Below, one piece after another: positions 12,068 to 44,006 of a stretch of DNA of 64,000 nucleotides. This stretch comes from a virus. Taxonomy: Duplodnaviria; Caudoviricetes. The DNA lies in the IMG/VR virus record IMGVR_UViG_3300047160_001275, positions 12,250-76,249 of that record. One strand, given 5' to 3'. Position numbers and translations under genes: made by a program. How positions within the stretch are numbered: position 1 is the first letter of the stretch; the number at the start of each line of letters is the position of its first letter. The notes under the pieces were generated by a model, which worked only from the letters and a program-made list of their open reading frames with translations, ran no database searches and was not told the origin of the DNA.

Positions 12068-12312
12068 GGGCCGCTGCCGGGCGGGTGGCCGGGTCCGATC
12101 GCCGACCTCACCATGTCGCAATTTTCGTGGACCGGGATGAACCTTCCCGAAGTCGTCACGATCAGGCACCCCGTTCCGTGCGCCCAATGACCGGCCGAGA
12201 ACGTCCTCGGGTCGCGGATCGAGGTGATCTCGTTCGGATTGATGTCGACCCTGTGGCTGCCGTCAGGGGTCGAGAACTGGGCTAGCACGAGGGCGACGGT
12301 GAGCAGGCTCAT
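12031..12312 (-). CDS. small exported Cys-containing protein
   Basis: Signal-like MSLLTVALVLAQ; four Cys. Confidence 0.5.
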   Translation of the reverse strand: MSLLTVALVLAQFSTPDGSHRVDINPNEITSIRDPRTFSAGHWAHGTGCLIVTTSGRFIPVHENCDMVRSAIGPGHPPGSGPCTLVCGGSIRP

Positions 12313-13216
12313 GGCCGAGGTTCCAGTAATGACGCGCTCCCTCCCGCAGGGAGGCGAAGCGGAAATCAGGGACGATTTCCATGAGCTTATGGGTGTCGGC
12401 TTGGGTGAAGCTTTGATAACGTGGCCGCCACCCGTCAGGGAACGGCGCGACCTCCAGCGCCACGCTCTGGCTCGCCTCCTCCATGCAGATCTTGGCGACG
12501 TCGACGAAGCTCACCGCGACCCCGGTGCCGACGTTGTAGACACCAGGCGGAAATGGGCCGCCGGTCAGGAGATCGCACGTCAGGCGAGCCACATCGTCGA
12601 CATAGACCCAGTCGCGTTTGTAGGCGTCGCTGCCCTTGAGGAGACGGATCGGGACGCCAAGACGGATGGCGTCGAGGCACTTGCTGACGAAACTCTTCAT
12701 GTCGCGCTTGTGGGCCTCGCCAGGCCCGTAGACGTTGAAGAGCCTCAAGCCCGCCCATAGCGGCGGCGCGGGTCTGAGCTTGGCCAGCGCCTGATCGGCG
12801 GCGAGCTTGCTGGAGGCATAGGGGCTAAGCTCCGAGAGAGACGCCGGATAATCCTCCCGCTGCTCCTCTCGCCGCCCATAGACCGAGGCGCTCGACGCAT
12901 AGAGGAACGGCCAGCGCCGATCGGCGCACAGGGTGAACAGGTCGATCGTCAGGTTGGTGTTAGTCTCGAACAGCGCCGCCGCGTCGTTGTCCAGGGTCGA
13001 GGTGCGCGCCCCCATGTGGATGACAGCGGTGTCGCGCGGGCAGGCGGACAGGAAGTTGAAGGCGTCGCGCGGGTCGATCAGCGTGTGCTTGAGGCGCTTA
13101 CGGTCGATGTTGGCCCAGCGCCGGTCGATGGACGCAATCGGGCCGAGGCCGCGGCACCGGAGCGCGCGGACGATGGTCGAGCCGATGAAGCCTGCGCCTC
13201 CGGTGACGACGTACAA
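12263..13216 (-). CDS. hldD: ADP-L-glycero-D-manno-heptose 6-epimerase
   Basis: GGAGFIGS, YASSASVYG, YASSK (YxxxK), LFNVYGPGEAHK, RDWVYVDDV, YQSFTQAD; TTG start after GAGAGGA. Confidence 0.85.
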   Translation of the reverse strand: MYVVTGGAGFIGSTIVRALRCRGLGPIASIDRRWANIDRKRLKHTLIDPRDAFNFLSACPRDTAVIHMGARTSTLDNDAAALFETNTNLTIDLFTLCADRRWPFLYASSASVYGRREEQREDYPASLSELSPYASSKLAADQALAKLRPAPPLWAGLRLFNVYGPGEAHKRDMKSFVSKCLDAIRLGVPIRLLKGSDAYKRDWVYVDDVARLTCDLLTGGPFPPGVYNVGTGVAVSFVDVAKICMEEASQSVALEVAPFPDGWRPRYQSFTQADTHKLMEIVPDFRFASLREGARHYWNLGHEPAHRRPRASPVLDP

Positions 13217-13662
13217 GCGATCCTCTCGATAAGCTGGGTGGTGCTGATCCGGTTGACCAAGGGGACGAACTCGACCCTGTCGACATGCTCAGCCCCAACG
13301 ATCGTCTTGCCCTTCCAGTCCGCGCCCTTGAACAGGACATCGGGGGCGATCCCGGCGATCAGAGGATCGAGCATGTCCTCGCTGAACACGATCACCGCAT
13401 CGACCGGCTTCAGCGCCGCCACCATTCGCGCCCGCTCATTGGCCGAATAGATGGGGCGGCCCGGCCCCTTCAGCGCCCTGACCGCCGCATCGTCGCTGAT
13501 GCCGACGATCAGCCGCCAGCAATGCGCCTTGGCGTGGACGAGCATCCCCACATGGCCGAGGTGGAGGAGGTCAAAGACTCCGTTCGTCCAGCCTATCGTG
13601 AGATTACTTTCACGCCATCGAGCCACGCGCCTCGCCAGCGTCGCTTGGGTGTCGATTCTCAT
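13078..13662 (-). CDS. hldC: heptose-1-phosphate adenylyltransferase (RfaE domain II / HldC-type)
   Basis: TNGVFDLLHLGH (HxGH), VRALKGPGRPI, KGADW, ISTT. Confidence 0.88.
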   Translation of the reverse strand: MRIDTQATLARRVARWRESNLTIGWTNGVFDLLHLGHVGMLVHAKAHCWRLIVGISDDAAVRALKGPGRPIYSANERARMVAALKPVDAVIVFSEDMLDPLIAGIAPDVLFKGADWKGKTIVGAEHVDRVEFVPLVNRISTTQLIERIACTSSPEAQASSARPSSARSGAAASARLRPSTGAGPTSTVSASSTR

Positions 13663-13865
13663 CGCGCGAACGCGCCATGCAGATCTTCCTCGGCCGCCCG
13701 TCTGTAGCTTCTTCCGTCAATCCTTATCAGTCGATAACCCTGATCGTTGACCGCCCCAGCGTCATTGCCTGCTGGATTGCGGTTAGAGGCGGTAGCGATC
13801 CACGTCCAATTGCCGGTCTCAAGTTCGTACAGAAGCAGTTGCTTCAGACGCACCGCCGTCAACAT
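13659..13865 (-). pseudogene. internally deleted HNH-AP2 homing endonuclease remnant
   Basis: N-terminus LKQLLLYELETGNWTW...GYRLIRIDGRSY joined directly to the typical C-terminus YRRAAEEDLHGAFAR; HNH core absent. Confidence 0.6.
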
Positions 13866-13877
13866 CCTCGCCCCCTT

Positions 13878-14867
13878 TTAGTGAAGCCGATGGAGAGATT
13901 CTTCTCTCTCCACCGCCCGACCTTTTTTGCCAGCGTTGCCTGCGTGTCGATCCGCAATGGCTTTGACCTCGTCCAGCGTCACCGCCGCCGTGCCCGCCCT
14001 GGAGACGGCGACCGCTCCCGCCGCGTTGGCGAACAGCGCCGCCTCCATCACGCTTTGACCAGATCCCAGAAGGACCGCCATCGCAGCCGCAACCGTATCC
14101 CCAGCGCCGACAACGTCAACCGCGTCGATCTCCAGCGGCGGGATCGACAGCGCCCCGTTGCCGTCGGCGAGCATCATGCCGTTCGCGCCGCAGGTCAGGA
14201 GAACGTGATCAATCTCGGTCGCCTCGCGCAGCGCCATGGCCGCCGCCGCCGCCTCGAACTCGTTGCTCGGCGGGGAATGGTGCAAAGCTTCGCCGATCTC
14301 CTTGAGGTTGGGCTTGATCAGGGTCGCGCGCTTCCAGCACGGGGCCATCGGCGTCTTGGTGTCGACCACGGACGGGATCGAGCGTTTGCGCGCCTCCTCG
14401 ATCACGGCCTTGGCCACCGCCGGGGTGACGCCGCCTTTGGCGTAATCTGAGACCACAACCGCGTCCGGTTCGTCCGCCTTGGCGATCTCGGCCAGGATCA
14501 GCATCTCGGCGGCCTCGCTGAGGGCCTCGGTCCGCTCGATGTCCATGCGGAACACCTGCCCGCCATTGACCAGCATCCGCTGCTTGACCGTGGTGACCCT
14601 TCCCTCGCAAGAGACGAGGCATGGCGTGATGCGCTCGGTCATGGCCAGCGTCTTGTTGAGGCTCGCGCCGCTGTCGTCCTTGCCGATCGCCGCGATCAAG
14701 GTCGCGTCTTGACCTAGCGCGGCGACGTTCATCGCCACATTGGCGGCGCCGCCTGGCATGACCATGCTGGCGAAGGGCATGAAGATCGGCGCAGGCGACT
14801 CCTGGCTCTCCCGTATCTTGCCGTGGATGTAGAAGTCGATCATCACGTCGCCATAGACGAGGATCAC
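13878..14867 (-). CDS. hldA: heptose-7-phosphate kinase (RfaE domain I / HldA-type, PfkB family)
   Basis: GDVMID, ESPAP, GGAANVA, SDYAKG, IKPNLKE, DVVGAGDT. Confidence 0.88.
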   Translation of the reverse strand: MILVYGDVMIDFYIHGKIRESQESPAPIFMPFASMVMPGGAANVAMNVAALGQDATLIAAIGKDDSGASLNKTLAMTERITPCLVSCEGRVTTVKQRMLVNGGQVFRMDIERTEALSEAAEMLILAEIAKADEPDAVVVSDYAKGGVTPAVAKAVIEEARKRSIPSVVDTKTPMAPCWKRATLIKPNLKEIGEALHHSPPSNEFEAAAAAMALREATEIDHVLLTCGANGMMLADGNGALSIPPLEIDAVDVVGAGDTVAAAMAVLLGSGQSVMEAALFANAAGAVAVSRAGTAAVTLDEVKAIADRHAGNAGKKGRAVEREESLHRLH

Positions 14868-15457
14868 CGCGCCCTCACGATCACCGCCTGGGTGGTTTGC
14901 TGGCGGTTGGCGATCAGGTGGCCGAGGACGGTGAAATGGGTGGCCATGTAGCCCTCGAACTCATCGAAGCTCCACTCCCTGACGTGGCTCTTGTTGATCG
15001 GCGGCCCTAGCCTCAGATCGCGCGGCAAGCCGTAGAGGTCGCGGTCCGGGGTCGAGATCACCGCCAGTCCGTCCTTGCGCATCAAGGACTTGATGAACGT
15101 GATCGTCTCGTTGGCGTCGACCACATGCTCGATCACATCGGCGCAGAGCACGAGATCGGCCTTGGCGGTCGCGCCCGCGTCGATCGAGCACCACATCCGG
15201 TCGGGGTGCTGGACTCTGAGCCAATCGACGATCTCGGGCGTCTCAAAGCCGAGCGTGTCGTAGCCGCCGAGCATCGTCACGAGCTTGAAGCCTGAGCCAC
15301 AGCCGACATCGAACACCGTCCGCCATTGGTTGGCGGCCATCAGCGCCTGGGCGATCAGGTAGACCTCCCGCTGCCACTCGTCCCGCAGAGCGCGATCGTC
15401 CCACGGTTCTGGGTCAGTGCGATGACGGTAATGGTCGGGCAGGCAATACGCGCCCAA
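14864..15457 (-). CDS. class I SAM-dependent methyltransferase
   Basis: VFDVGCGSG, DLVLCADVIEHV, VISTPDR, HVREW. Confidence 0.85.
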   Translation of the reverse strand: MGAYCLPDHYRHRTDPEPWDDRALRDEWQREVYLIAQALMAANQWRTVFDVGCGSGFKLVTMLGGYDTLGFETPEIVDWLRVQHPDRMWCSIDAGATAKADLVLCADVIEHVVDANETITFIKSLMRKDGLAVISTPDRDLYGLPRDLRLGPPINKSHVREWSFDEFEGYMATHFTVLGHLIANRQQTTQAVIVRAR

Positions 15458-18400
15458 TCAGGCCGCCTTGGCCGCCAGCCCAATAAAACTTAGGTCAGGC
15501 TCGCCAAACGCCTCGCGCGTCCAGCCGCTCCATGAGCGTAGGAACGGGGCTAAGGCCGTCCTGCGGTTGTCCCAGGCCAGCCTGAAGCTGTCGCAGGCGT
15601 TCCAGTGCCCAGGCCCGCGCTTGAAATGGCCGCCCTCCTTGGTCATCGGCACCCCAGCCAGGATGATCCGGTCGTAGCCAAGCTGACGCGCCACCGCCAC
15701 CGCGAACAGTCCGCTTGAGCCGCGCCAGTCGTCGGCGACGTCGGTGATCCCGGCAAACGGGTGCCTTCTATCGCCCTTGGTGTGCGCCCACACTTGGCTC
15801 GGCGGCAAGCGTCGGGTCCGCGCCCGCGCGCTCAGCCAGTCCTTTGCCTTGTTGGGATGGAGGGTGACGCCGACGCAGTCGCCGTCGAACTCACTGATCA
15901 TGTCGTTGATCACGAACCATGTCGCCTGGACGCCGTCGAGCAGGGCGCGGGTCTGCTCGACCTCGTGCAGGACGTCGCCGCCGCCTCCGACCACCACCGC
16001 GATAGGCTTCGTTAGGGCTTGTCCATCAAAGTTGCCGGTCTGTTCCCGTCTGGTTCCTGATTCGGCGGCGAGACGCGGATTTAATTCGGCGGAAATTCGG
16101 GCGGCTCCCGGCTTGGCCGCCTCGAACGCCATCGACTCGATCTTGTTGAAGACGTCGCCGATCACCTTGCCGTGGCCCTCGACGCCACGAAGCTCAGGAT
16201 GGGGGCTTTGCCCGACCTCCCGCTCGCAGAGATATGAGAAACCAGCGTAGCGAAGCAGGGACGCCATCACGCTCACCGTCCACGCCATCTGGTGGCCATG
16301 TGAGAACAGGATCGCCTTGGCCGCGCCATGGGCGGAAGCCTCGCCGCTCCATTTCTTGGTGAACTCGAAATACGCCTGATCGTCGCAGGCCATGATCTTC
16401 TCGATGCTCGGCACCGTCACCCGCAAGATCCCGCCGGGGGCGAGCACCCGGAACGCCTCCTCGAAAAACCGGATTGCCTCGTGGCAAGAGACGTGCTCGA
16501 CGCAGTGCTCGATGAAGATGTAGCTCGCCGAATTGTCGCGCCATGGCAACGGGCGGGCGATGTCGACGTCGGAATCATGGTTCTCCCAGCCGGGGAGCTT
16601 GTTGTCGCCGCAGCCGAGGTTGAGCTTGATCAGGGCCGTCCGCGAATCGACGCGGGATGAACTGGAAAGGGGACTGACAGCCTCCCGGCCCACCAGCGCC
16701 GCCTCGACGAACCGATCGTAGCAGAAGACATCGTTATGGCAGTGCGTCACCCAGTCGAGATCGAGCGCAACGACGTTGGCGTTAGTGATTTGATGCTTGT
16801 CGCCGCGCCAGCCTTTGATCGGCAGCATGTAGAGGTTGGGATCGCCGACGATCCCGCGCACCACCACCTCAGGGGTTGGCCTGACCTCCCGGTGCGGCCA
16901 ATCGTAACGCTGGGTGAACTGGTTCCGTTTCACCCAGTCGACCGAGAAGGCCATCAGCCCCGTCTCGACCCATCCGGCGAAGTCGCGCTCCATGCCGCTG
17001 ACCGGGATCGACGCGACCGGCTTGCCCCATTTGACCATGTCGGCGACGAGGTTGCGCACCGGCAGGCGCAGGAGCGAGTCGCCCTCGATATGGGCGACGA
17101 ACTCGTAGCCGCGTTCGACCGCCAGATCGAGCCCCTTGGTGAACGCCCGTCCCCAGCCGTCGCGGCCCTTGCGTGAGAGATGGCCGACGTTGTCGCCGAA
17201 CTGGAACACCTCGCAGCGCGGTCCATTGCTTGGCTGGATAATCGGCAGAGGCGAAGCGCTGTCGACAAGTAGGAAGTCGCAGTCCGGGTTGAGCGCGCGG
17301 TGCAGGAAGAGCCACTGCACCGTCAGCTTCTGCCGGTCGGCCGAGTCGACGTAGGTGGTGCCGAAAATCAGAGTGCGGGAGCGAGCGCCGCCTTCTGGAG
17401 GGGGTGCCGCGCCCGCTCCCTCCGTCGGTCCCGCAGCGGGGGTCGTCTTCGGGAGCGACGTGCGCCATTGCGCGGCAAACTCCCTCACCCTGTCAAGCGC
17501 GGGCGGCAGGTCGATCTTCTTGTCGCCGCAGTCGTGCCGCTCGGTGTGGCAGTCGCACGGCTGGATCGGGTCTATGCCGAGAGTCGGCGCAAGATGCGCG
17601 CCTGCCCGCTGAGTCGTCCGGTAGGATTCCCGGCCGCCATAGACGCATATCGACGGCGTTCCGACCGCCTGAGCCAAGACCGGGGCAAATCCGGCATTAC
17701 AAAAGACGATGGCAGCCTGTTTGAATAGCGCAGCCATGCTCTGGAACGTGAGTTCGCCGCCATGGAATTTCAGGTCCGCTTCTGGTTCCGGCCCGACGAT
17801 CCACTCCTCCCCCGGCTGGAGGTCGGCGATCGACACCACGAAATAGCCATCCTTCGCCGCCTTGTAGAGCGTCTCGTAGCCCTCTGGGTCTGGGTTGCGG
17901 TTGGCGCTGTTCCATTCTCTTCTCAGGACGATGGGCCGATAGACGAGGAGTGGCTTCCCTCCGGTGTCGAACGCGGGCGCTCGCCATGAGCCGGGAACCG
18001 GCAGCGAAAAGTCGAGCGGCTTCAGGTGGTCGACCGGATGGCCCTGCTCGCTGATCGCCCCCGCCATCGCTTGAAGAATCGTGCCGTAATGGTCGATGGC
18101 GGGCTTCTTGTACCACAATTTGATGTGATGGGCGGACGCTGGCGCAGCGGGAACGACCCCGAACAGGCCCCGCTCGCGCGCGATTGTCTTGGCCTGCGCT
18201 CTAAGCCTTGTGTCCTTGAAGATCAGGTGCAGCCGGTCGCCGATCAGGTCATGATAGACATGCCAGTGCGAGGTGTGCAGCCACACCTCTTCCCGCTTCA
18301 TCAGTTCCCGCAGGATCGCCCGCTGGTGGAGGTTGTCGCCGATGCCATACATGCCGTCGATGACCACCGCGCCTCCGGGGCGAGCCATATCGGCTCGGTG

Positions 18401-18565
18401 CTCGGAGATCTCAAGTTCGTGCGGCGACCGATAGAGGGCCTGGACCAACGTGTACGGCAGGTCGACCCCTTGGATCGCCTCCCCCGGCTTGACCCGCACC
18501 TCCAGTCCAAACGAATCGTACACGATTCGCGTCGCTCGGCTATTATTTCGGAGGTCATACAACAT
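15458..18565 (-). CDS. multidomain glycan-modification protein: capsid-protein-like N-terminal domain, GT9-like, GT-A-like, SAM methyltransferase, DUF115/MAF-like
   Basis: GMYGIGDNL and ELTFQSMAALFKQAAIVFCNAGFAPVLAQAVGTPSICVYG (GT9-like); LLVDSASP...NVGH...AHIEGD (GT-A-like); LNLGCG...EHCVEH...RVLAPGG (MTase); AVVVGGG...SSGLFAVAVARQLGYDRIILAG (DUF115-like). Start set at MLYDL. Confidence 0.75.
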   Translation of the reverse strand: MLYDLRNNSRATRIVYDSFGLEVRVKPGEAIQGVDLPYTLVQALYRSPHELEISEHRADMARPGGAVVIDGMYGIGDNLHQRAILRELMKREEVWLHTSHWHVYHDLIGDRLHLIFKDTRLRAQAKTIARERGLFGVVPAAPASAHHIKLWYKKPAIDHYGTILQAMAGAISEQGHPVDHLKPLDFSLPVPGSWRAPAFDTGGKPLLVYRPIVLRREWNSANRNPDPEGYETLYKAAKDGYFVVSIADLQPGEEWIVGPEPEADLKFHGGELTFQSMAALFKQAAIVFCNAGFAPVLAQAVGTPSICVYGGRESYRTTQRAGAHLAPTLGIDPIQPCDCHTERHDCGDKKIDLPPALDRVREFAAQWRTSLPKTTPAAGPTEGAGAAPPPEGGARSRTLIFGTTYVDSADRQKLTVQWLFLHRALNPDCDFLLVDSASPLPIIQPSNGPRCEVFQFGDNVGHLSRKGRDGWGRAFTKGLDLAVERGYEFVAHIEGDSLLRLPVRNLVADMVKWGKPVASIPVSGMERDFAGWVETGLMAFSVDWVKRNQFTQRYDWPHREVRPTPEVVVRGIVGDPNLYMLPIKGWRGDKHQITNANVVALDLDWVTHCHNDVFCYDRFVEAALVGREAVSPLSSSSRVDSRTALIKLNLGCGDNKLPGWENHDSDVDIARPLPWRDNSASYIFIEHCVEHVSCHEAIRFFEEAFRVLAPGGILRVTVPSIEKIMACDDQAYFEFTKKWSGEASAHGAAKAILFSHGHQMAWTVSVMASLLRYAGFSYLCEREVGQSPHPELRGVEGHGKVIGDVFNKIESMAFEAAKPGAARISAELNPRLAAESGTRREQTGNFDGQALTKPIAVVVGGGGDVLHEVEQTRALLDGVQATWFVINDMISEFDGDCVGVTLHPNKAKDWLSARARTRRLPPSQVWAHTKGDRRHPFAGITDVADDWRGSSGLFAVAVARQLGYDRIILAGVPMTKEGGHFKRGPGHWNACDSFRLAWDNRRTALAPFLRSWSGWTREAFGEPDLSFIGLAAKAA

Positions 18566-18785: not shown

Positions 18786-20473
18786 CCGCGAGGACGGACA
18801 GTCACGTTGCCCGCAACTCGCACGACCGGGCGGCCGTCATCACGCCGCTCAAGTCGTACAGCATCGCGTCCTCTTGTCTTCGCCTTGGCCGACTGCGGCT
18901 GCGACGGCGGCCCCTGGTCGCCATGCAGGCTGGGGTCGGGCTTATAGGCGACGATGGTCTTGTGCGGGATGAAGTCGCCGGTCGGCGAGGCTTGGCCTTC
19001 GTCGCTGAGCGAGCCCCGGTTCTCGCCGTTGATCCACTTGTTCGAGCCGTGCAGGAGGATCAGCGGCTCACCCAAGGCATGCGCCGTCACGCGGGGGTCG
19101 ACCGGCTTGCCGTCGGCGTCGACGAACAGCCGCCGGTTGGCCTCGCTGGCCGGATCGAGGATCTGGCCGGTCCACATCTGGAACTCCGCCATCTCGACCC
19201 GATAGATGTTGTCGACGTATTTAGGCTGGGCCGGGAAGCCCATCGGCTGGTCCTTAGCGGGCACCGACGGGTCGGTCAGCGTGTACTTGGGCAGGACGCC
19301 CGTGTCATAGTAAGCGCCGCCAGGGGTGCGCAGGCGCAGAAGTTGTGCTTGGTCCTGGCCGAGCAGGGTGAAGGCGTCGTCGGTGATGACCGCGTTCAGG
19401 TCGTCGGGATTTCCGGGCCAGTTGCTGTCGAGGTCGTAGCCGGTGAGGTTCTTGTCGTCGAAGGCCATATAGAGGTGCGACGCGGCGTCGACATAGGTCC
19501 AGTTGGGGCCGAATGGCTCACCCAAGATCGTGCCGTGGGTCTGAACCGTCGCGAGGTCTACCGAAACCAGAAGATGGTGCCACTGGTTCGGCGTGACGTT
19601 GATCCCCAGGCTGTAGATCGACCCGGTGGCGTTGAGCACGGTGGAGGAGATGTCGACGTAATTGAACACCGGGTCGACGACCACCGTAGGGCAGTTCGGA
19701 AAATCCACCCAATGGGTGTTGTCGGAGACGGTCCACGCTGGGCCGATCTGCTCGCTCACGAGCCCGAGGCCGGGATAGTGCCACTGCTCAACGCGGGTGC
19801 CGGTGAAGAAGGCGGCGCAAGGATCGTCAGGCGTGCCACCCGTCCCGCCAAAGTACACGCTGACCACGCAGGGAGGGCCGTAGCCGTACTCATAGCCCTG
19901 CGTCATGCTCCTTAGCTCGTACTGGAAACCCTCCACCGTCGCCTTCTGGCCGGTCTCAAAATTGACCCACAATTGCCCACCAGTGTTGACGCCGATGAAA
20001 GTCGGAAAGGTCGGATCGCCCAGACCGGTCGGCTCGGTGTCGTAGACCGTCCACATATCCGGCGGCTCAGTGACCGGCTGCAAATAGGCGCTTGGGTTAT
20101 AGACGTAGGTGCCTTGGGCGATGTTGTTGACCGTATCGACAGCCTCGATGGTGACGGAGTTGTCGACGCCGCAGTTCGCCACCCCCCAAGTGTGGGTAAC
20201 CGAGGCGACGACCTGACTCGGCGTCCCTTGGTAAGGCGTCTGAGCCTCGCCCTCCTTCCCCATCGTCACCAGCGGGATGACTCCCACCATAGGCGGCGGG
20301 TTGGCCGGAAACAGGTTGGCGGCGCTCCAGGCGTTATAGTCCGCATTGACCTGATCGAGCGCCGATTGCGGGATGCGGAACCAGAGCGAGATGATCGCCT
20401 GAGTGAAGTCGGGAATGCCGTCGGGCAGGTTCAGATAGCCCACGGGCTCAGGTGTCCTTGGGGTAGAACTCAA
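18782..20473 (-). CDS. tail-associated protein with a split LamG/concanavalin-like domain
   Basis: ISLWFR...[11 protein letters not shown]...MAEFQMW...RRLF; position in the tail module. Confidence 0.55.
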
Positions 20474-21242
20474 CCGCGAGCCCCGTGCTCCACGCCACGT
20501 TGACGATGGTCTGGAGAGGGTCGAGCCTGACCAGGGTCGCGTCGTCAGGCGATTGCTGAAACAGGGCGGCGACCGTCTTGTTGTTGGTCAGGACGTAGGT
20601 CATGTCCTGGCCCCTGTCGCCGGTCAGGACGTCGGCCCCGATCCTGAGCTTGAAGCTCTTGCAGCACTCGACGTCGACCTTCTGGCTTGAGTCCTGCTTG
20701 CCGCTCTGGAGCGCCGTCTGGTAATCGTCCCAATTGACCGGCCCCTGCGTCATATCCAGGCCGCCTTGGGAAGGATCGCCGCCGAGGTCGTTGTTGACCA
20801 CCCGGATCGGCGACACCTCGCGCACCTGCGACGGGTCCATCGTCTGGTCGCCGGGATCGCCGTCCTTCGGCACATTGTCGAAGGTGTAGGCGCGGACGAC
20901 ATGGGTGGCCGGGCCGCCCTTCTTGCTCGGGTCGTCGTCGCGATGGTCGATCTTCAGCTTGTCGACGATCCAGACCTGAACAAACTGGCTCTTGTCGTCG
21001 GGGTTGTAGACCTTGCGCTCGTCGGTCTTGCGCACCGGATTCTCTTGCCCGGTGTCGTCCTGAGCCTCGTCCTTCCATTGCTGGACGTAGAGCGTGTCCT
21101 GCGCCGTGGCGCCGCTCGGCTGGCCGCGATACTGGAACGCCCATTGGTCGATCCGCAGGATGTCGAGCCAGACGTCCTTGTCGGCGACGTTGCCCTGGTC
21201 GTCGGTCTGGTAGATCCGCTTCACATGGGCCTTGCGCACCAT
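20448..21242 (-). CDS. hypothetical tail-module protein
   Basis: MVRKAHVKRIY..., 264 aa, coupled to its neighbours. Confidence 0.6.
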   Translation of the reverse strand: MVRKAHVKRIYQTDDQGNVADKDVWLDILRIDQWAFQYRGQPSGATAQDTLYVQQWKDEAQDDTGQENPVRKTDERKVYNPDDKSQFVQVWIVDKLKIDHRDDDPSKKGGPATHVVRAYTFDNVPKDGDPGDQTMDPSQVREVSPIRVVNNDLGGDPSQGGLDMTQGPVNWDDYQTALQSGKQDSSQKVDVECCKSFKLRIGADVLTGDRGQDMTYVLTNNKTVAALFQQSPDDATLVRLDPLQTIVNVAWSTGLAVEFYPKDT

Positions 21243-21253
21243 GTCCACGGGGG

Positions 21254-22012
21254 TCAGATCCCCACCGCCAGCGCAGCCCCACGCGCGCGGATGGTCATGG
21301 CGACGGCGCTGGCCTGCCCGTTCGCTAGCCCTGCCGCCGTCGCCGGGGAGATCGCCGCCGCATTGGCCGCGCCGCCCGCCATACCCGCGCCCGCGAAGGT
21401 GTAGATCCCGCTCGGCCCGGCCGAGAAGCCGCCGGGCACGGAATAGGCGAAGGCCGTCGCGCCGAAGTTCGCCGTCTCGGTGGTCGGCGACGAGGAGGCG
21501 TTCTGGAAAGCCAGACCGGCAAAGGCGACGTTGGTCGGAAATAAGGCTGAAATGCTGATGCCGCCCGTGTTGGTCGCCGGGTTGGCGGTCGAGGAGGCGT
21601 TCCAAAGCTCGTTGTTGGTGCGGAACCAGATCGTCGAGTCGGTGAGGTCGACCGCGACGCAGCGAGTGGCGATATAGACGCCGCCGCTGGGATAGGCGGT
21701 GAGATTGGAAATCGCGACCCCGGTCGACGTCCCGTTGACCCAGATCCCGCCATTGGCGTACACGGTGGCGCTGCCCAGCGCGCTGGCCAGCGGCGAGCCG
21801 ATCAGCGACGCGGTCATGGCATAGACGCCGCATCCAGTGACAGAGCCCGCGCCGCCCCAACTGAACGCGACCTCGAAATAGAACTTGCCCGACGACTGCC
21901 CTTGGGTCGACCGCACCGCCGTCGACCCGTCGGTGGTCGCGCCAGCGGTCAGGTTGCCGTTCGAGAGGACAACGCCGGGGGCGGCGTCGTTCGGATTGAG
22001 GGCGGTCGTCAT
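21254..22012 (-). CDS. SPRY-like beta-sandwich virion protein
   Basis: LNPNDAAPGVVLSNGNLTA...SSGKFYFEV...ANFGATAFAYSVPGGF; paralogue of the N-terminus of 37155..38954. Confidence 0.6.
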   Translation of the reverse strand: MTTALNPNDAAPGVVLSNGNLTAGATTDGSTAVRSTQGQSSGKFYFEVAFSWGGAGSVTGCGVYAMTASLIGSPLASALGSATVYANGGIWVNGTSTGVAISNLTAYPSGGVYIATRCVAVDLTDSTIWFRTNNELWNASSTANPATNTGGISISALFPTNVAFAGLAFQNASSSPTTETANFGATAFAYSVPGGFSAGPSGIYTFAGAGMAGGAANAAAISPATAAGLANGQASAVAMTIRARGAALAVGI

Positions 22013-23721: not shown

Positions 23722-26700
23722 CTATCCTCCTGTGGACGGGGCCGAAAGGTCGATGGTCTTAGGGATCTGAAGATCGGTGGTGGTCACCACATAGGCCGCG
23801 CCGAACGGCCCGTTGGTCAGGGGCTTCATCACGAGTTCGTACCACAAGCCATGGCCTTGCTGAAGTTGCTTGATCACCGCCTGCTCGACCGCGTTGGCGA
23901 TTGCACCCCAGTCGGTCTGCGGGACCGAGATGCTCTCCGACGCCGTGCCGCCGATCGCCGAGACCGGCCCGCTATAGGTCGAATGGGCCGCCGCGACCGC
24001 CTGCTTCACCGTGGTGTTGATGATCTCGTTATAGGCGTCGACGTTCAAGCTATCGAGGGTCGAAGCGGTTCCGTGCCAGGCGCTGATCAAGATCAGATCG
24101 TTGGGCGAAGCCGGAAAGGTCAGCCCGTCGTCGGTGACCTGCTCGACCGGCGGCGCATAGCCCATCGCCCCTGGCGGCTCCTGAAGCGGCGGCGGGATCG
24201 GATCGGAGACATAGCCGCCGCTGACTGGGGGCGCTGGCCACCCCGATGGCGGCCCATTGCCAGGAGGCGCCCCCCCGGCCGGGATTGCGCCCTGCCCTGC
24301 GGGCGGCGTTGGAGCCACAGCGGCTATTGCGCCGTCATAGACCTGATAGTCGAGCACATAGCCGTCGACCACGTATTCCGGCACGCCCTCGACCGCAGGG
24401 CTCGACGGCGAGGACAGCGTCATGGCCGAGGGAACCCCCGGCGCATATTGGCCGATCGAGCAGCCGAGGGTGACGTTGGCGGAAACGCGGCCGGTATCGC
24501 CGTCAGCGATCAGCTTGTAGGCAATCACCTTGCCATAAGCCTGAGCGCCCGGCAGTCGAGCGTCGGCGATGCCCGCGCTCATCCGGCAGCTAAGCTGCGC
24601 CGCCTGCTCGAACCGCGTGTCGAACGAGATCTGCACCGCCCGTGCGCGTTTGCGCAGATGCGCCCGCGCCCGCATCATCATGTGCTGGAGCGATTGCTGG
24701 CCACGGTCGGACGGGAAGTAGGATCGGGCTGGCGTCATCCCAGGCCAGCCGCCGATCGGCACCGTCACCAGCCCGATGTTCTGCCAAACGACCGTCCCGT
24801 CCGTCGTCTGCGAGCCGTAGTTCTCGTTGAAGGTGGTGCGGAACAGGCCCGTCTGCCCGCTCTTCACGCACACGTACAGGAACATGCCCGACGGATTGAT
24901 AAAGGTCTGCATCACCGCCTGGGCGCTCGCCGTGCTCGTCCCCGCTAAGCCGAGAGACGACGGCGTGGTGCCGCTCAAACCGCCGATGAACCCTGCTTGC
25001 GTCACTTCGTACATGGCCGCGCCTGGGCCGCCAGCGCCGTCGGTCAAGACCTCGAACGTGGTCACGGCGGTCCCGCTCGGCGGATAGTTGAGCGAGCCGG
25101 GCTTGAGCATCGAGTTCATATCCGCCACCCCGGAGAGCGGCTTCGGCAGCACCATCGCGCCCAGCGGCACATTGGCGCTTCTCACCCAGTCCTGCACCTG
25201 CTCGACCGGCTGGCTCGCGCCGAGCGAGGTCCAAACGACCGTGCCGTCCGCCGTGGTCGCGCCAGAGACATTGGAGAACAGAGGCTCGACCAGTCCCGTT
25301 GTTCCCGCTGTAGTGCAGATCTGGCTTGAGGTCTGGCCGGGCGCCAGCGGATTGTCGGGGAAGACCATGGTCCCCAGGCTGACCGGCTGCCCCGCCACGC
25401 TCGACCAGTTGAGCAGATTGGCCACTGGCATCGACAGGTCGCCGGTCTTCAGCGTGATCTGCTCGGTGTCTTCGGTGACCAGCGGATCGATCAGGATCGG
25501 CTGGACGTCGGCCTTGAGGGTGAACTCCAGTTGCTCATTGCGCTTGCGGTTGGGCTCGTAGACGAGGGAGAGCGTGGCGACCGACTGCTTGCCCAGGAAG
25601 TCCAGGGCGTAGGTCCGCCAAGTGACGAAATGGGACTCCTCATGCAGCGGCTGGTTGGTCGGATCGGGATTTCCGCCCGCATCGACCGTATACGGGTTGA
25701 TGATGCCGGGGACCGACACCGAATAGGTGACGACCATGTTGCTGTTCGGCGGCAGCGAAGTGTAGTCGGACACGATCGACATCGTGTCCCCTTGCTCATG
25801 GTGTTTGGCGGTGTTGCGCCACTCGTAGTGGACTGTCGGCGCGCCTCCAGCCATCTGCGCCAGCATCGACGCCGCTATGCTGGGGTCTCGTTCTCCTGCC
25901 CACGAGATCGCCGCCGAATAGCCGCCGCCAAGCCCAGACCCGCTCTTCGGCCAGTCGCCGACAAAGCTGTCGCCGCCGAGCGTCGGATAGGACCATGAGC
26001 CGACGTTGAAGAAGCCACGATAGCGTTGCTCCCAGGTCACCTCGGCCTTGACGTTGACCGCGACCAGCGGGCTTTGCAGGAGCCGCATCTGGACGCTGTC
26101 GTAGAAGACATCCTGGGTATGGAAGGAAACGACCGCGTCCTCGCCCAGCAAAATGTCGGAGACGCTGACCTGATTTGTGATCCGGTCGACATGATAGAGG
26201 GCCGACCAGCCCTCAAGGATGGCGTCGGGATCGTCGCGCTTGGACGGCTCGAAGAAGATCGGATCATATTCCGGCAGGATCTTCAGCGACTCGGCGACTT
26301 GCTGCTTCTGATAGATGTAGTTCGGCGCGCGGGCGATGAACTGCATCTCCACCACATTGGCCAGGATCGAGGTCGGGATGCCGACCAAGCGGCCGAAGAA
26401 CAATGGCTGCGCCGGTCCCGCGTCGCGGGCGTAAGAGAGCCAGAACCAATAGTTGCGGGACGGATTGATCAGGCCGACACGCGGGTTCTTGACCTGAAGG
26501 GTGAGCTTGGGGATTTGCCCTTCGTCGTGCTCGATGGTGAATGAGAAGACGTTCTCGTCGAACCGCGCGTATGACTGGCTCCAGGCGGTCGCGGTCTGTG
26601 GCTCCCATGCGGTGTAGAAGGTGAGCCCGGCGGTCGACCCTGGCGCGATCCACGCCATAACCTTGATGGCGTCTTGCGCCTGCGCCCGCTCGGCCACGGC

Positions 26701-27231
26701 GACTTTGGTGTGAACGACGACCGAGAGGTGGTCGGACGCATTCGCCGCGTGTTCCACCACCACAAAGGCTTTGTAGGCGAAGATCGTTGGATGATCGGCC
26801 GCATGGGACGCCTCAACGACGGCGACATGGCGAACGATCGCGCTGTTCAAATGATCGGCGGCGGATGCGGCGTCGGTCTGGGTGAACGTCCAGCGGGTGG
26901 GAGAGGCCGGATGGTCCTGCGCCGTAGCACGCTCTACGACAGACAGAAGGGCGCGAACGGTGACGCCGACGATATCAGCAGCGGACGCCGACTCATTCAG
27001 CGACTGGCGCGGGATATAGACGCCGATGCTGTCGACGGCGGTCGCTCTCTCGGTGAGGCTGACCGACCAATGGGCGGGGACGTGGGCGTCGAGCGTGTCG
27101 ACGGCATGCGCCGTCTCGACGATCGCCGATGACGGGATGACGACGGCGTCGACGGCATGCGCCGTCTCGACGATCGATACGGAGACGGGCGGAGGCGGGG
27201 CGACGCCGAGTCCTGGCAGGAACCCCGTCAT
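23722..27231 (-). CDS. large tail-tip / central fibre protein
   Basis: 1169 aa after the distal-tail-like gene; N-terminal ExAxAxD repeats; internal TxDGTVVW modules. Confidence 0.7.
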   Translation of the reverse strand: MTGFLPGLGVAPPPPVSVSIVETAHAVDAVVIPSSAIVETAHAVDTLDAHVPAHWSVSLTERATAVDSIGVYIPRQSLNESASAADIVGVTVRALLSVVERATAQDHPASPTRWTFTQTDAASAADHLNSAIVRHVAVVEASHAADHPTIFAYKAFVVVEHAANASDHLSVVVHTKVAVAERAQAQDAIKVMAWIAPGSTAGLTFYTAWEPQTATAWSQSYARFDENVFSFTIEHDEGQIPKLTLQVKNPRVGLINPSRNYWFWLSYARDAGPAQPLFFGRLVGIPTSILANVVEMQFIARAPNYIYQKQQVAESLKILPEYDPIFFEPSKRDDPDAILEGWSALYHVDRITNQVSVSDILLGEDAVVSFHTQDVFYDSVQMRLLQSPLVAVNVKAEVTWEQRYRGFFNVGSWSYPTLGGDSFVGDWPKSGSGLGGGYSAAISWAGERDPSIAASMLAQMAGGAPTVHYEWRNTAKHHEQGDTMSIVSDYTSLPPNSNMVVTYSVSVPGIINPYTVDAGGNPDPTNQPLHEESHFVTWRTYALDFLGKQSVATLSLVYEPNRKRNEQLEFTLKADVQPILIDPLVTEDTEQITLKTGDLSMPVANLLNWSSVAGQPVSLGTMVFPDNPLAPGQTSSQICTTAGTTGLVEPLFSNVSGATTADGTVVWTSLGASQPVEQVQDWVRSANVPLGAMVLPKPLSGVADMNSMLKPGSLNYPPSGTAVTTFEVLTDGAGGPGAAMYEVTQAGFIGGLSGTTPSSLGLAGTSTASAQAVMQTFINPSGMFLYVCVKSGQTGLFRTTFNENYGSQTTDGTVVWQNIGLVTVPIGGWPGMTPARSYFPSDRGQQSLQHMMMRARAHLRKRARAVQISFDTRFEQAAQLSCRMSAGIADARLPGAQAYGKVIAYKLIADGDTGRVSANVTLGCSIGQYAPGVPSAMTLSSPSSPAVEGVPEYVVDGYVLDYQVYDGAIAAVAPTPPAGQGAIPAGGAPPGNGPPSGWPAPPVSGGYVSDPIPPPLQEPPGAMGYAPPVEQVTDDGLTFPASPNDLILISAWHGTASTLDSLNVDAYNEIINTTVKQAVAAAHSTYSGPVSAIGGTASESISVPQTDWGAIANAVEQAVIKQLQQGHGLWYELVMKPLTNGPFGAAYVVTTTDLQIPKTIDLSAPSTGG
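27097..27176. repeat. two exact 29-bp direct repeats (27097-27125, 27148-27176), in frame
   Basis: GTCGACGGCATGCGCCGTCTCGACGATCG twice at 51-bp spacing; encodes the (S)IVETAHAVD repeat. Confidence 0.9.
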
Positions 27232-27235
27232 GGGC

Positions 27236-27721
27236 TTAGATCTCTTCTAAGCCAAGCTCCCAGCTATACAGCGCGGGATATTCGCTGAACGACGACGTGA
27301 TCTTGGACACCATCATGGTCAGCACCGGCCGGTAATAGGTGATGGTGCCCTGAGCGCGCGGCGAACCAGAAACCGCCGACCGCTGCGGGATCGCGCCTTG
27401 CGGAAAGGAAAGCTCGCAGGCGCACTCGACCTCGCATTGCTCGCCGAGCCACGCCCCGTCGAGGCACGGGCTTTCGCCGTCGCGGCAGGTGACGGTCGAA
27501 TGGTACTTGCGGAACCGTGGATCGGCGACCGATCGCATCCAGCCATTGACGTCTCGCCGTAGCCACGCGCTTCCCTGCCCGCCCGCGCCAGAGATCGGCT
27601 CCAAGGTCTGGGTGATGCCGCGCGCCGAATAGGGGGTGAGGGTCACCGCCGTCGAGCCAGACAGCGGGATCAGCACCAGAAGCGTGCCCTGCGGCAGGAG
27701 AAGCGGGGTCACGAGTACCAA
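27236..27721 (-). CDS. distal-tail-like protein
   Basis: Directly follows the tape measure gene; assignment by position only. Confidence 0.55.
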   Translation of the reverse strand: MVLVTPLLLPQGTLLVLIPLSGSTAVTLTPYSARGITQTLEPISGAGGQGSAWLRRDVNGWMRSVADPRFRKYHSTVTCRDGESPCLDGAWLGEQCEVECACELSFPQGAIPQRSAVSGSPRAQGTITYYRPVLTMMVSKITSSFSEYPALYSWELGLEEI

Positions 27722-30700
27722 GACGGACGGGTGCCCGTCGACGTGAGCTTGGCGCCGATGGCGGAATTGGTGATCGCGTCCATCACGCCCTGGCTGGCGG
27801 TAACCCCGAACTCGCCGCCGTCGGTGACCAGATTGAGGCTGTAGCTGGGGGTCGCGCCCATCCGGCCGAGGCTGCTCATGGAGCCGCCATAGAGGTCGGC
27901 GGTCGGCACCAGACCTTGAGCGAAGCCCATCTCGGCCTGCATCGCCTGCCGGGCCGCCATGGTGACGCCAGGCTGACGCATCGCCAGCGCCATCATCGAG
28001 CCAGAGAGCGAGATGTCTCGCGCCAAGGCGGGGTTCAGCGCGAGCGCCCCGGCGATGCTGAGCGGCGGGCCGCCAGCGCCCTCGCCAGCCGCCAGCGAGG
28101 TTAGGCCGGTGTATTGCTGCGACACTGCCCCAGGAGCCAACGGAGAAGCTCCAGAGAAGCCAAAGAACGGGCCGCCTGCGGCGAACCGGCCAGCGTTGAG
28201 CGCGTCGAACAGGCCGATCCCGTAGCGCGACACCGCCCCGCCGCCCATCAGGTATTCGCCGTTGGAGACCAGCGCCGGAACGAGGCCGCCGCCGCCGTAA
28301 AACTCGCCCGCCTCATAGCGCCGCGACCAGCCGAAACCCGCCTCGCTGCCTCCGGTCACCGGATTGAGGGAGCGCAGCCGACGCTCCCAATCTGGCATGG
28401 TTGCCTGCGGTCGCTGTGCAAGCGACGCCCAATACTGCCACCATGCCGCCGCTCGCTGGGCCGCCTCCAGCCTGCGCTTGGCCAGAGTTCCTTTCGGCAC
28501 GCCGAGACGATTCTCTTCTGCGGCGTCCTCGGTCGCCTGATCCGGCGCGCCTGCGCCGAAGCCAGAGAACGAGCCGAAAGCTCCCAGCGTCGGCTGATTG
28601 GGGAAATTGGGATCGGGGCCGATGACAGGGATCTTATTGATTACAGACACGCCTGGCATATTGCTGGTGTAGTCGATCACACCGCCGCCCTGGAAGCGGC
28701 GGCCGTTGAGCGCATTGAGCAACGGCAACCCGATCCGCGCCGTCTGAGCGGCGTTGATCACGTACTCGCCCGCCGACAGCATCATCGGGATCGAGTCCGA
28801 GGTGCCCGATCCCGGACCGACGATCAAGCCGCCTGCCGCCTGTCCAGCAGGCCCAGTGCCGTGGGGCTCCTCTGGTGTGACCCCGGTCGCGCCTTCCGGG
28901 TTCACCTGCTGCGGGATGGCGCCGCCGAAGCCATGCGGGCCGATGGTTATCGATTGGTTGATCGTATTCAGAATCCTATCCAGCGCCTCCAGCCCAGTCG
29001 CGGCCCGTCCCGCAGCGTCTCCGAGCCGCTTCAGGTCATCGGTGGCGGCGGGCATGGCCGCTAGGCCAGCCTTCACCTGTAGGATCTGCGACTGGAGATC
29101 GGCCATGGCGGCGGCGCGGCCATAGGCGCTGGATGGCTCATAACCTCCCAGCATGGTCTCCGCATACCGCCGCCGGATCGGCTCCAGTTCTGGGGCGACC
29201 TCGGTCATTTCAGGACCGATGGCGCGCAGCTTGCTCAGGAGTTCGACCGGAGCCATCCCGCCGAGCACGCGCGGGGTCAGGCCGAGCGCCTCGAACATCC
29301 TGAGCGCCGCCTGGGTCGACGGGCCGGGAGCCGCCCCTTCCTTTTCCTCTGGCACGTATTGACGGATGAACTGCGCCAACGCCGAGAACGGTTGGCCCTG
29401 AAATTGAGTGTTGGCGATGTCGAAGACGGCGGCGCGCAAGGTTTCAGGCCGCGCCGTCTGCAAGATGCCAGGGACATCGCCGCCCCGGATCATTTGCTCG
29501 ACCGGGCCAAGCTGCCGTCCACGCAAGTCTTCGGCCGCCCGCTCCGCTGCCCGCTCCCCCCTCTCCATCTGTTTGATCAGGTCGCGGGTGGCGTCGATAT
29601 TCTGCCGCGTCGTGTCGGCATTGCGCTGAAGCTGTTCCGCGAACGCCTGCGGTCCAGGCCCTCCGGTCGGGCTTAAGCCCCTCCCCTGATACTCGCGCGC
29701 CTTCTCTCCTTCTTCGACCGCGCGCTCACGGGCGGCGGTGGCTTCTCGCGACTGCAACGCCGCCGATTGAAGGTCCAATTGGTTAAGCTGATATTGCAGG
29801 TACTGCGCCATTTCCGGGTTGTCAGCGCCAGCCACCCGCATCTGGGTCTGGACTTCGCGGATCTGCGCCCGCTGCTCGGCGATGGCCGCCGACTCTGGCC
29901 GGAACTTCTCAAGCTCCTGCGCTTGCAGCCGCTGCTCCTCGGCTGCGTGCTCGCCCTCGATCGTCGCCTTGGCCTGGGCCTCGGTCGCCGACTCGATCGC
30001 GTCCTGAAGGCTGCGCTTGGAATCCGCCACCTTGCGGTCGGCGGCGACGATGGCGTCAGTCGCAGCCTCCGTCTCGTCCGCCGCGTCACGCTGGGAGCGG
30101 GCGATCTCCTGCATCGAGGCGCGGGACTCGGCAGCGACGCGAGCGTAGGCGCGCCCCAAGACCTCGACATGCGCGCCATGGCTGGCGAAATTGACCGCCA
30201 GCGCCGCCATCTGCTCGGCGGATATACCCGCCGTTTCCGCCATCTCGCGGAACCCGCCGACCAGTTCCTTGGCGTTGCGGGCGGCGATCTGCTCGGCCGT
30301 CTCGACCGCCGCCAGACCGGCGATGATCGCGGTGATCGGGCTGGCCAGCGCCGTCAGCGCCCGCGCCATGAACCCGATTGCGCCGCCAGCCTCGGTGGCC
30401 GCCGTGGTGATCTTGACGAAGCCTTCGGCGACCTCGGCCAGAGACCCCGCCTCCACGCCCTCGGAGATGATCTTCAGCGACTCGCCGAACTTCTTCATCC
30501 CCTCGCCAGCCTGGGTGGCGCTCTCTCCGGTCTCCTTTAACTTTTCCGGCAACCCGCGAAGGAAGCCGAGAATGCCGCTGAAAGCCCCGCCGCCAACGCC
30601 GCCTGCCGCACCGCCGCCCCCGCTCACCATGGCTTGCAACGCCTGGGCGACCGCCGCCGTGCCCGCCTGATGCGCGGTGGGCTCGTTCAGCGCTTGCCGG

Positions 30701-33548: not shown

Positions 33549-33720
33549 GAAGCAACATTCGCAGGCGACCGCTCTGAAAAATCTGCGCTGATCTAGACAA
33601 TCTGCGCTTCTCTTTCTTCCTGCCTCGCCGAGGCTCGTTTCACGCGCGGCTTGCGCTGCGCGCCAGAGCGTTCCTCTCCGCAGGCTGTCGCCGCAGAGCT
33701 TGCGGCGTAGAGTGAGAGAT
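33549..33720 (-). ncRNA. predicted TnpB omegaRNA scaffold plus ~20-nt guide (TCGCCTGCGAATGTTGCTTC)
   Basis: Established rule that the omegaRNA derives from the tnpB 3' end and right end, with the guide from flanking DNA; right end inferred at ...TTTTTCAGAGCGG (GG at 33570-33569). Boundaries approximate. Confidence 0.5.
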
Positions 33721-43679: not shown

Positions 43680-44006
43680 TCAGCGCGGCGAGCGCTTGAC
43701 GTGGCCGTGCGGCTCTGGCGCAGGCTCAGGAGCAGCGTCGGCAGGAGGGCTGACGAATGGGCGCAGCGGAGCGAACTCCGACTCGAACTCGCCCTCGAAC
43801 GGCCCCTTGTCCGTATATCGGACCTCTTGACCTTCGGCCGCCTTCGCCGCGCCCTTGAGCAGGAAAGCGAGCAGCGGCCGGGGGAGCACGATCTCCTTCG
43901 TCTCGCCCGGCCCGATGCGGTACTGCTCCATGCCGTCAGGGCCGCCGTGGATGACGCGCGGCGCGGGTGTGACGTTGGCGACTTCGACTCTGACCAAATC
44001 TGGCAC
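43680..44006 (-). CDS. small capsid-associated protein downstream of the major capsid gene
   Basis: VEVANVTPAPRVIHGG...RIGPGETKEIVLP, Pro-rich tail; synteny. Confidence 0.65.
   Translation of the reverse strand: MPDLVRVEVANVTPAPRVIHGGPDGMEQYRIGPGETKEIVLPRPLLAFLLKGAAKAAEGQEVRYTDKGPFEGEFESEFAPLRPFVSPPADAAPEPAPEPHGHVKRSPR

Follow-up and report, generated by a model that had tools for sequence, protein, structure and literature searches.

The stretch of DNA considered here (64,000 nucleotides, hereafter the window) corresponds to bases 12250-76249 of the 76,249-bp IMG/VR record IMGVR_UViG_3300047160_001275, which belongs to an uncultured tailed phage. At the 3' end of its structural genes lies a gene for a 1035-amino-acid (aa) multidomain glycosylation enzyme, called BIG below, whose leading catalytic domain is predicted to fold like ADP-heptose transferases. 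Next come the genes for a separate methyltransferase and for putative homologues of HldA, HldC and HldD, three enzymes of ADP-heptose synthesis. BIG is a core gene of these phages; the Hld genes are accessory. The reading favored here, to which we give about an even chance, is a late glycosylation of a phage structural protein, in which a heptose would be added first, followed by further sugars and a methyl capping. The genes and domains concerned are the following; domain residues are numbered as in P0001, the open reading frame (ORF) that extends to 18712.

15458-18565, minus strand: BIG, 1035-aa multidomain glycosylation enzyme (ORF list, translation, alignment-fixed start)
18401-18565, minus strand: BIG N-terminal beta-rich module of about 50 aa, residues 50-104 (model, profile)
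17450-18385, minus strand: BIG GT-B domain, residues ~110-421 (model, Foldseek, VIA, phrog_6804)
16682-17392, minus strand: BIG GT-A glycosyltransferase domain, residues 441-677 (VIA, Foldseek)
16073-16630, minus strand: BIG class I S-adenosylmethionine (SAM) methyltransferase domain, residues ~695-880 (Pfam, PHROGs, Foldseek)
15461-16012, minus strand: BIG C-terminal domain, residues 901-1084, weakly MptE-like (DUF115) or sialyltransferase-like (atlas features, homologues)
14864-15457, minus strand: 197-aa SAM methyltransferase (Methyltransf_23, E 4.3e-12)
13878-14867, minus strand: HldA-type kinase of the PfkB type (TIGR02198, 256.5 bits)
13659-13865, minus strand: orf68, 68-aa N-terminal remnant of an HNH homing endonuclease (three-frame reading, tblastn)
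13078-13662, minus strand: HldC-type heptose-1-phosphate adenylyltransferase (TIGR02199, 140.9 bits; phrog_7878)
12263-13216, minus strand: HldD-type ADP-glyceromanno-heptose 6-epimerase (TIGR02197, 227.6 bits), the last gene of the late strand

The five co-oriented minus-strand genes of the initial annotation (a GT9-like transferase, a methyltransferase, a kinase, an adenylyltransferase and an epimerase) were all recovered in the ORF list and the family searches. The BIG frame is open to 18712, and an alignment of 30 homologues places the conserved start at the ATG at 18565. The protein comprises four catalytic-type modules and the N-terminal module, and its structure models have mean predicted local distance difference test (pLDDT) values of 90.4 (residues 50-440) and 88.7 (residues 441-1084).

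The affinity of BIG to heptosyltransferases comes from its GT-B domain. Among the Foldseek matches of the modelled domain, TibC ranks first (4rap, E 1.3e-9), ahead of 3tov, WaaC and WaaF (E 7e-9 to 1e-6). The VIA Z scores are 19.2 for 3tov, 19.0 for TibC, 17.3 for WaaF and 17.2 for WaaC, and about 10 for unrelated GT-B proteins; the VIA superposition on TibC aligns 261 residues with a root-mean-square deviation of 3.4. A GxGDxxHQR motif after the first strand and a CxCHxxxHxC cluster are invariant across the aligned BIG homologues, with G123, G125, D126 and H129 unchanged in all 30 of them; D126 is a candidate for the catalytic Asp that GT9 enzymes have after strand 1 (Asp13 in WaaC). The search of BIG against NCBIfam returned no family at E<=0.01. 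Among the sub-threshold matches of 26 BIG homologues (E<=10), RfaQ was found 11 times, heptosyltransferase types II/III five times, MurG twice and an enoyl-CoA hydratase once.

Two known groups of enzymes are close enough in fold to be compared with this domain. TibC shows that the fold can heptosylate proteins from ADP-heptose in the cytoplasm, its substrates being adhesins that are modified before export (PMC4358343). TibC and Aah (BAHT; PDB 4RAP, 4RB4) provide the best or tied-best structural match to the BIG GT-B domain. BIG, like TibC, would be soluble, with a beta-rich part ahead of the GT-B fold; its Cys/His cluster and the Asp of its GxGD may correspond to the Cys-rich, metal-type cluster in the late C-lobe of TibC and to Asp110, which follows the first strand there. 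Nevertheless, their sequence identity is only about 10-12%, the cluster reads CxCHxxxHxC in BIG and consists of four spaced cysteines in TibC, and the BIG N-terminal module has about 50 aa and is homologous to small phage proteins, whereas the TibC barrel has 97 aa. In BIG, three further domains are joined to this one in a single chain, and neither an autotransporter nor a Ser-rich acceptor lies nearby. The second group is made up of the GT9 enzymes WaaC, WaaF and RfaQ (PDB 2H1H, 1PSW, 3TOV), heptosyltransferases of lipopolysaccharide (LPS), which are GT-B fold neighbours of BIG with Z scores of 17-19 and whose donor, ADP-L,D-heptose, is the product of HldD. The weak sequence traces of GT9 in BIG fall in the nucleotide-sugar-binding stretch (PF01075 at 170-217, RfaQ at 248-291). 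BIG differs from these enzymes in scoring under all curated thresholds (the hhalign comparison with WaaC is likewise weak, at 27%), in the motif around the heptose-binding Asp, which is NAGFAPVLAQAVGTP, and in its location in a phage structural operon instead of an LPS core cluster. On the strength of the modelled fold, we conclude that the BIG GT-B domain probably works like an ADP-heptose transferase and that it lies outside GT9 and BAHT at the sequence level.

The remaining catalytic-type modules were assigned by different means. The second one has a GT-A fold: its best VIA match is GlyE (5gvv, Z 15.7), further matches include TarP, SpsA and PBCV-1 A64R (Z 15.7-13, model residues 1-237), and Foldseek retrieved glycogenin, LgtC, UGGT and LARGE1. 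In keeping with a DxD-type signature, the motifs VDSxSP and EGDS are invariant in the 30-homologue alignment; no Pfam family passed the threshold for this domain. The third module matches Methyltransf_11 (E 6.6e-6), the methyltransferase family phrog_6636 and methyltransferase structures in Foldseek. The C-terminal domain falls near MptE-like clusters of the protein atlas (0.91 and 0.88). PF01973 (MptE-like) was found below threshold in five of 15 homologues (best E 0.0077) and CST-I in one of them; PF01973 had no match with the BIG sequence of the window itself, and the fold of the domain could not be distinguished within the 441-1084 model. When the PDB was queried by sequence, neither BIG nor the profiles made from its N, M and C domains retrieved anything meaningful; a carboxypeptidase and designed TIM barrels were the only hits, and they scored no better than chance.

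A possible counterpart of BIG is found in cultivable phages. PAJU2 gp11 and D3 orf12, from the D3-like phages (Detrevirus), are homologous to the BIG GT-B domain (hhalign 99.9%, 34% identity), and gp11 keeps a GxGD..QRA motif together with a CxCx4HxCDK-type cluster. The gp11 gene is located between head-closure and tail-terminator genes (L069 5504-7447, gp10-gp12) and is flanked by an annotated methyltransferase and an annotated alpha-2,3-sialyltransferase, which by their annotation would mirror the methyltransferase and C-terminal domains of BIG. In contrast to the single BIG fusion, these are separate genes (D3 orf12/orf13; PAJU2 gp10-gp12), and the stretch of PAJU2 examined contains no GT-A domain, N-terminal module or Hld genes. 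The match of gp10 with the BIG C domain is weak (hhalign 33%), and BLASTP gave no match between gp12 and the BIG methyltransferase domain. Judging from these comparisons, BIG may have a split equivalent in PAJU2 gp10-gp12. No paper on what the GT9-like gene of PAJU2 and D3 does came up in the literature searches.

The three Hld genes are the source of the proposed donor. TIGR02197 is the best family of HldD (model positions 2-310 of 316; GalE follows at 61.5 bits), TIGR02199 that of HldC (3-143 of 144) and TIGR02198 that of HldA (10-312 of 315). The motifs GGAGFIGS and YASSK are both kept in HldD (tested as GxxGxxG and YxxxK), HLGH and ISTT in HldC, and GAGD in HldA. Pfam, NCBIfam and PHROGs agree in assigning an SDR (short-chain dehydrogenase/reductase) epimerase, a cytidylyltransferase-like protein and a PfkB kinase. 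Yet all three score under the NCBIfam equivalog cut-offs (274.6 bits for TIGR02197, 181.5 for TIGR02199 and 345 for TIGR02198). The HldA, HldC and HldD identities proposed initially are thus upheld by top-ranking, full-length families with their motifs and fall short at the equivalog level. Since the scores remain under these cut-offs although the families rank first over their full length, the phage proteins are best described, from their sequences, as divergent members of their families.

From BIG through hldD the genes abut or overlap one another: the BIG stop codon touches the start of the 197-aa methyltransferase gene, the latter overlaps hldA by 4 nt, and the end of orf68 runs into the first codon of hldC (ATGA). 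orf68 has tblastn matches in 323 phage records; the identities among the matches listed are 41-52%, and several are annotated as homing or HNH endonucleases. Upstream of orf68 and overlapping the end of hldA, about 27 codons of the HldC N-terminus can be read a second time, out of frame. Together, orf68 and the duplicated HldC start (13659-13990) may be the trace left when an endonuclease inserted itself and split an hldE-like pair. At its other end, the HldC frame extends 45 codons past the domain (domain end ~13216) as a low-complexity tail that overlaps the start of hldD out of frame (13078-13216), which could reflect a lost stop codon or a sequencing frameshift.

The structural genes of the phage form one long minus-strand block, in which the genes from BIG to hldD stand last, at the 3' end, so that the position downstream of the tail genes on the late strand is confirmed. 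The following members of the block serve as landmarks.

45687-47795, minus strand: protease of the structural block
44017-44961, minus strand: major head protein (capsid; phrog_264, E 1.9e-85)
43680-44006, minus strand: 108-aa protein directly after the major capsid gene, whose N-terminus has the BIG N-terminal module
27709-30984, minus strand: tape measure protein of the structural block

The same block also carries a tail terminator, a major tail protein and large distal tail and fibre-like proteins. Beyond hldD lies a convergent plus-strand operon encoding a PDDEXK exonuclease, a RecT-like protein and an HNH protein, the nearest gene of which ends at 12190. A host-chromosome origin of the segment, past the end of a prophage, had been named as a possible objection and is contradicted: because it is flanked by tail genes on one side and phage recombination genes on the other, in a window of even guanine-plus-cytosine content (~0.64), the segment 12263-18565 is internal phage DNA. 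CheckV gives the whole record a completeness of 100%. A megablast of the region against isolated phages gave no match.

The location in the structural block is complemented by a link between BIG and the neighbourhood of the capsid gene. The N-terminal module, modelled as five short strands and one helix, yielded a profile that matches 172 proteins at E<=0.001 among 1.84 billion, most of them stand-alone proteins of 72-160 aa. This stand-alone family aligns with the 108-aa post-capsid protein at an hhalign probability of 95.4%, and the module profile aligns with it directly at 74%. Weak reciprocal matches across genomes, between BIG N-termini and post-capsid ORFs, were observed in all four genomes compared (the present one and three relatives, G001, G006 and G009). 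The link is seen with profiles only: pairwise BLASTP between the BIG N-terminus and the post-capsid protein found nothing, a word-based homologue search with the 108-aa protein retrieved only itself, and PHROGs has no annotation for the small-module proteins. On these profile comparisons, the sharing of a module between BIG and the post-capsid protein is real, and gene order suggests that the module may dock on the capsid. The interpretation of the cluster as a system for the heptosylation of virions gains indirect support from this common module.

The relatives of BIG separate the enzyme from the Hld cassette. They were found in 50 IMG/VR loci by an alignment-based search; a single-protein query returned nothing. 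There are at least 150 BIG homologues, many of them on contigs of 72-82 kb, and in every related locus that retains the upstream flank BIG comes after one and the same set of tape-measure and tail genes. Shorter homologues with three domains were found in proviruses as well as in Bradyrhizobium and Mesorhizobium genomes, which indicates hosts of the Hyphomicrobiales type. Neither Hld genes nor the 197-aa methyltransferase (the latter sought by tblastn) were found within 10 kb of BIG in the 50 related loci. An HldA-HldC-HldD set is present in two of the 19 other related genomes searched, away from BIG in both: in G006 it is located between the terminase and portal genes together with a small cupin protein, and in G009 beside the terminase gene together with a fused HldE and a GmhA. 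The G006 cupin protein (126 aa, after hldD; 70761-71141, L059 10761-11141) has weak matches to lyxose and mannose-6-phosphate isomerases and could replace the missing GmhA isomerase. GmhB was found in none of the four genomes compared. The initial annotation spoke of a dedicated donor pathway; transferase and cassette are adjacent here, but they do not form one conserved unit, as the survey of related loci found the cassette beside BIG in none of 50.

The history of the cassette is nevertheless partly visible. Directly after BIG, G001 carries a 73-aa stub with 53% identity to the HldA of the window; the cassette would therefore once have been adjacent to BIG there and later been deleted. In the HldA tree, the protein forms a clade with stand-alone metagenomic HldA sequences (support 0.985), which is sister (0.79) to those of G006, G009 and other viral copies. 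Because of this placement, the cassette looks like an old but dispensable resident of the phage group. More broadly, at least 113 loci of viruses have an HldA-like gene. The 80 best of them include HldC in 38 cases, HldD in 16, GmhA in 15 and GmhB in eight, and BIG lies near none of these 80. A GT9 match was obtained in 13 of 29 other viral records with Hld genes, including all five records that are >=90% complete. The matches listed from a metagenome scan are mostly bacterial HldA proteins with 31-41% identity, none with BIG nearby. The closest homologues of HldA and those of BIG occur on contigs of identical size (8358, 6996 and 73672 bp) and may therefore lie side by side there.

If these genes act together, the following scenario may be proposed. 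The host GmhA would supply D-glycero-D-manno-heptose-7-phosphate, which the phage HldA would phosphorylate; a host phosphatase would then remove the 7-phosphate (the GmhB step), HldC would produce ADP-D,D-heptose and HldD would epimerise it to ADP-L,D-heptose. The TibC/GT9-fold domain of BIG would transfer the heptose to the acceptor, the GT-A and MptE-like domains would add further sugars, and the BIG methyltransferase domain and the 197-aa methyltransferase would methylate the product. The N-terminal module, being common to the capsid-neighbour protein, would bring BIG to the acceptor, which is most likely a phage structural protein. The analysis establishes the family-level identity of the genes, the predicted folds, the close packing, the pattern of conservation and the common module; we infer the donor, the order of the reactions and, above all, the acceptor. 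A more specific version, in which the ~50-aa module recruits BIG to the head and a head protein receives a methylated heptose oligosaccharide from partly phage-made ADP-heptose, is possible, though tentative.

Viral precedents exist for parts of this scenario. In chloroviruses, A064R extends the glycan of the capsid by two rhamnose residues, the last of which it also methylates (PMC7826918), and the multi-step action proposed for BIG would resemble it by analogy. Like BIG, A064R and A111/114R of PBCV-1 are viral enzymes in which several glycosyltransferase domains follow one another on one polypeptide; in A064R the last domain is a methyltransferase that methylates the terminal sugar, and the substrate of these enzymes is the capsid protein of the virus itself (PMC7826918). 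The GT-A domain of A64R (2p6w) matches that of BIG with a Z score of 14.1. Unlike the present phage, PBCV-1 is a eukaryotic algal virus with rhamnose, xylose and fucose chemistry, its enzymes are devoid of a GT-B heptosyltransferase-like domain, and they have no sequence relation to BIG beyond the shared fold. Among phages, mycobacteriophages are reported to encode glycosyltransferases that modify the subunits of their capsids and tail tubes (Freeman et al. 2023, cited in PMC12619734). Those phages differ from this one in their actinobacterial hosts, in their transferase families and in bearing the glycans on C-terminal tails, of which none were seen in this phage.

Several observations weigh against the glycosylation of the particle. 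In the sequence of the GT-B domain, the PF01075 match to BIG reaches 12.7 bits at a cut-off of 22 bits and covers positions 170-217 only, with no Pfam GT9 family at E<=0.01; the label GT9-like is thus backed by the TibC and GT9 neighbours in fold and not by the Pfam threshold. TIGR04414, which we take to be the model of the BAHT family, is absent among the NCBIfam families matched by BIG or its 26 homologues. As for the donor, the 76,249-bp genome has no match at E<=1 to gmhA, SIS/SIS_2 or gmhB, so that the absence already reported for the window extends to the whole genome, which encodes three of the five steps to ADP-L,D-heptose (GmhA, HldA, GmhB, HldC, HldD) and not the complete pathway. 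Most relatives carry BIG without any Hld genes; the donor could therefore differ or come from the host. As for the acceptor, no Ser-run or collagen-like (Gly-X-Y, Ser/Thr-rich) candidate was found in real reading frames, and the capsid and tail-tube proteins have no obvious Ser/Thr tails. Synteny beside the capsid gene is no proof that the shared module binds the capsid, and cargo genes for host conversion, too, are often placed where a late operon ends. Finally, a promoter and terminator scan returned nothing above chance, and the hairpin 3' of hldD is insignificant (z -0.37). What stands of the virion heptosylation proposed initially is the gene content, the late 3' position and the heptosyltransferase-type fold; membership in GT9 or BAHT by sequence and a conserved transferase-cassette unit do not.

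A first alternative, which we regard as serious though rather unlikely, is that BIG and the Hld enzymes remodel the host surface: the LPS core, exopolysaccharide, or a protein that is secreted or exposed on the cell would be modified. Receptors would thereby be masked, leading to superinfection exclusion or to less trapping of progeny on debris, or else lysogens would be converted. WaaC and WaaF, which are structural neighbours of the GT-B domain, act on the LPS core, and the NCBIfam traces of the BIG homologues are mostly LPS heptosyltransferases. The three-domain homologues in proviruses, Bradyrhizobium and Mesorhizobium would fit such a role, and TibC modifies its exported adhesins before export (PMC4358343). 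Viral Hld genes are also usually interpreted as LPS auxiliary genes (PMC11671562). In the bases ahead of the window, the minus strand carries two ORFs in tandem, of 274 and 244 aa (L079 1601-3188), whose products have signal peptides and PEP-CTERM tails of the PEPRTWVM type, which hint at an exosortase-bearing Gram-negative host; these PEP-CTERM proteins of the phage itself are candidate substrates, and possibly exported ones, for host-surface glycosylation. Lysogenic conversion, on the other hand, is weakened by the lack of an integrase or resolvase, none of which was found in the genome. BIG is moreover core to the group and locked to the structural operon, its D3-like homologue lies between head-closure and tail-terminator genes, its N-terminal module is common with a capsid neighbour, and no membrane-associated partners of the Gtr type were found among the neighbouring genes scanned.

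It is also conceivable, if improbable, that the two parts of the cluster have unlinked functions: the cassette would be a free-standing auxiliary set that sustains the LPS heptose of the host, and BIG would use donors of the UDP- or CMP-sugar type. Such a separation would account for the 50 related loci in which BIG has no cassette beside it, the different placement of the set in G006 and G009, the lack of BIG near the best 80 of the viral HldA-like loci and the scores of BIG under the GT9 sequence thresholds. It is at odds with the translational coupling of the genes from BIG to hldD, the HldA stub that follows BIG in G001, the equal-sized contigs carrying the closest HldA and BIG homologues, the GT9-type gene in many viral Hld records, including all the complete ones, and the fact that the fold neighbours of BIG are specifically ADP-heptose enzymes. 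A last alternative, that BIG glycosylates and methylates the bases of the phage DNA against restriction with ADP-heptose as donor, is highly improbable: phage glycosyltransferases that put diverse glycans on DNA are known (Pyle et al. 2024, as cited in PMC12619734) and the genome encodes an MT-A70 DNA methylase, but DNA glycosylation is made unlikely by the fact that no thymidylate-synthase-like hydroxymethylase was found in the genome, DNA glucosyltransferases are not near the top of the fold matches, and the genes lie in the structural operon and not in the replication module.

Some further features of the structural block may be mentioned. A 392-aa transposase (phrog_506, E 5e-112) is inserted within the virion operon, beside the tail-terminator gene (33593-34771). 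Two structural proteins, of 645 aa (40484-42421) and 1169 aa (23722-27231), have in common the repeat C.TAGT.G..EP.W....G..T.DG.V.W (phrog_20658, head decoration); the middle region of the former is Cys-punctuated and beta-helix-like, with 21% Ser+Thr. In the 470-aa ORF at 20448-22012, the N-terminal half is Arg-rich, seemingly out of frame, and overlaps a plausible 252-aa gene (21254-22012, phrog_10080); the true gene probably starts near residue 215.

To our knowledge, glycosylated particles of tailed phages have been proven experimentally in mycobacteriophages only, and we know of protein heptosylation as demonstrated on bacterial adhesins only. The literature searches found no study of the BIG enzyme family in phages. 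What is particular to the present case is the fusion of four modules, the module shared with a capsid neighbour, the split between a core enzyme and an accessory cassette and the apparent split form in the cultivable D3-like phages. The latter, in the Pseudomonas phages D3 and PAJU2, turns the function of these enzymes into a question that can be addressed at the bench. The picture that emerges is that of a group of soil phages with a core, late, four-module enzyme whose lead domain has, in the model, the fold of an ADP-heptose transferase, and which some members supplement with donor-supply genes of their own. Should the particle be the target, viruses would be decorated by a chemistry not seen in them before, which might affect stability, adsorption or the escape from host recognition; if the head is what is heptosylated, it would be the first heptosylated virus particle and would point to a widespread, unstudied toolkit of phage glycosylation. 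In that case, the viral genes reported from metagenomes as LPS heptose auxiliary genes may serve phage transferases rather than the LPS of the host, a possibility that the GT9-type gene in 13 of the 29 viral Hld records, and in all five complete ones, also suggests.

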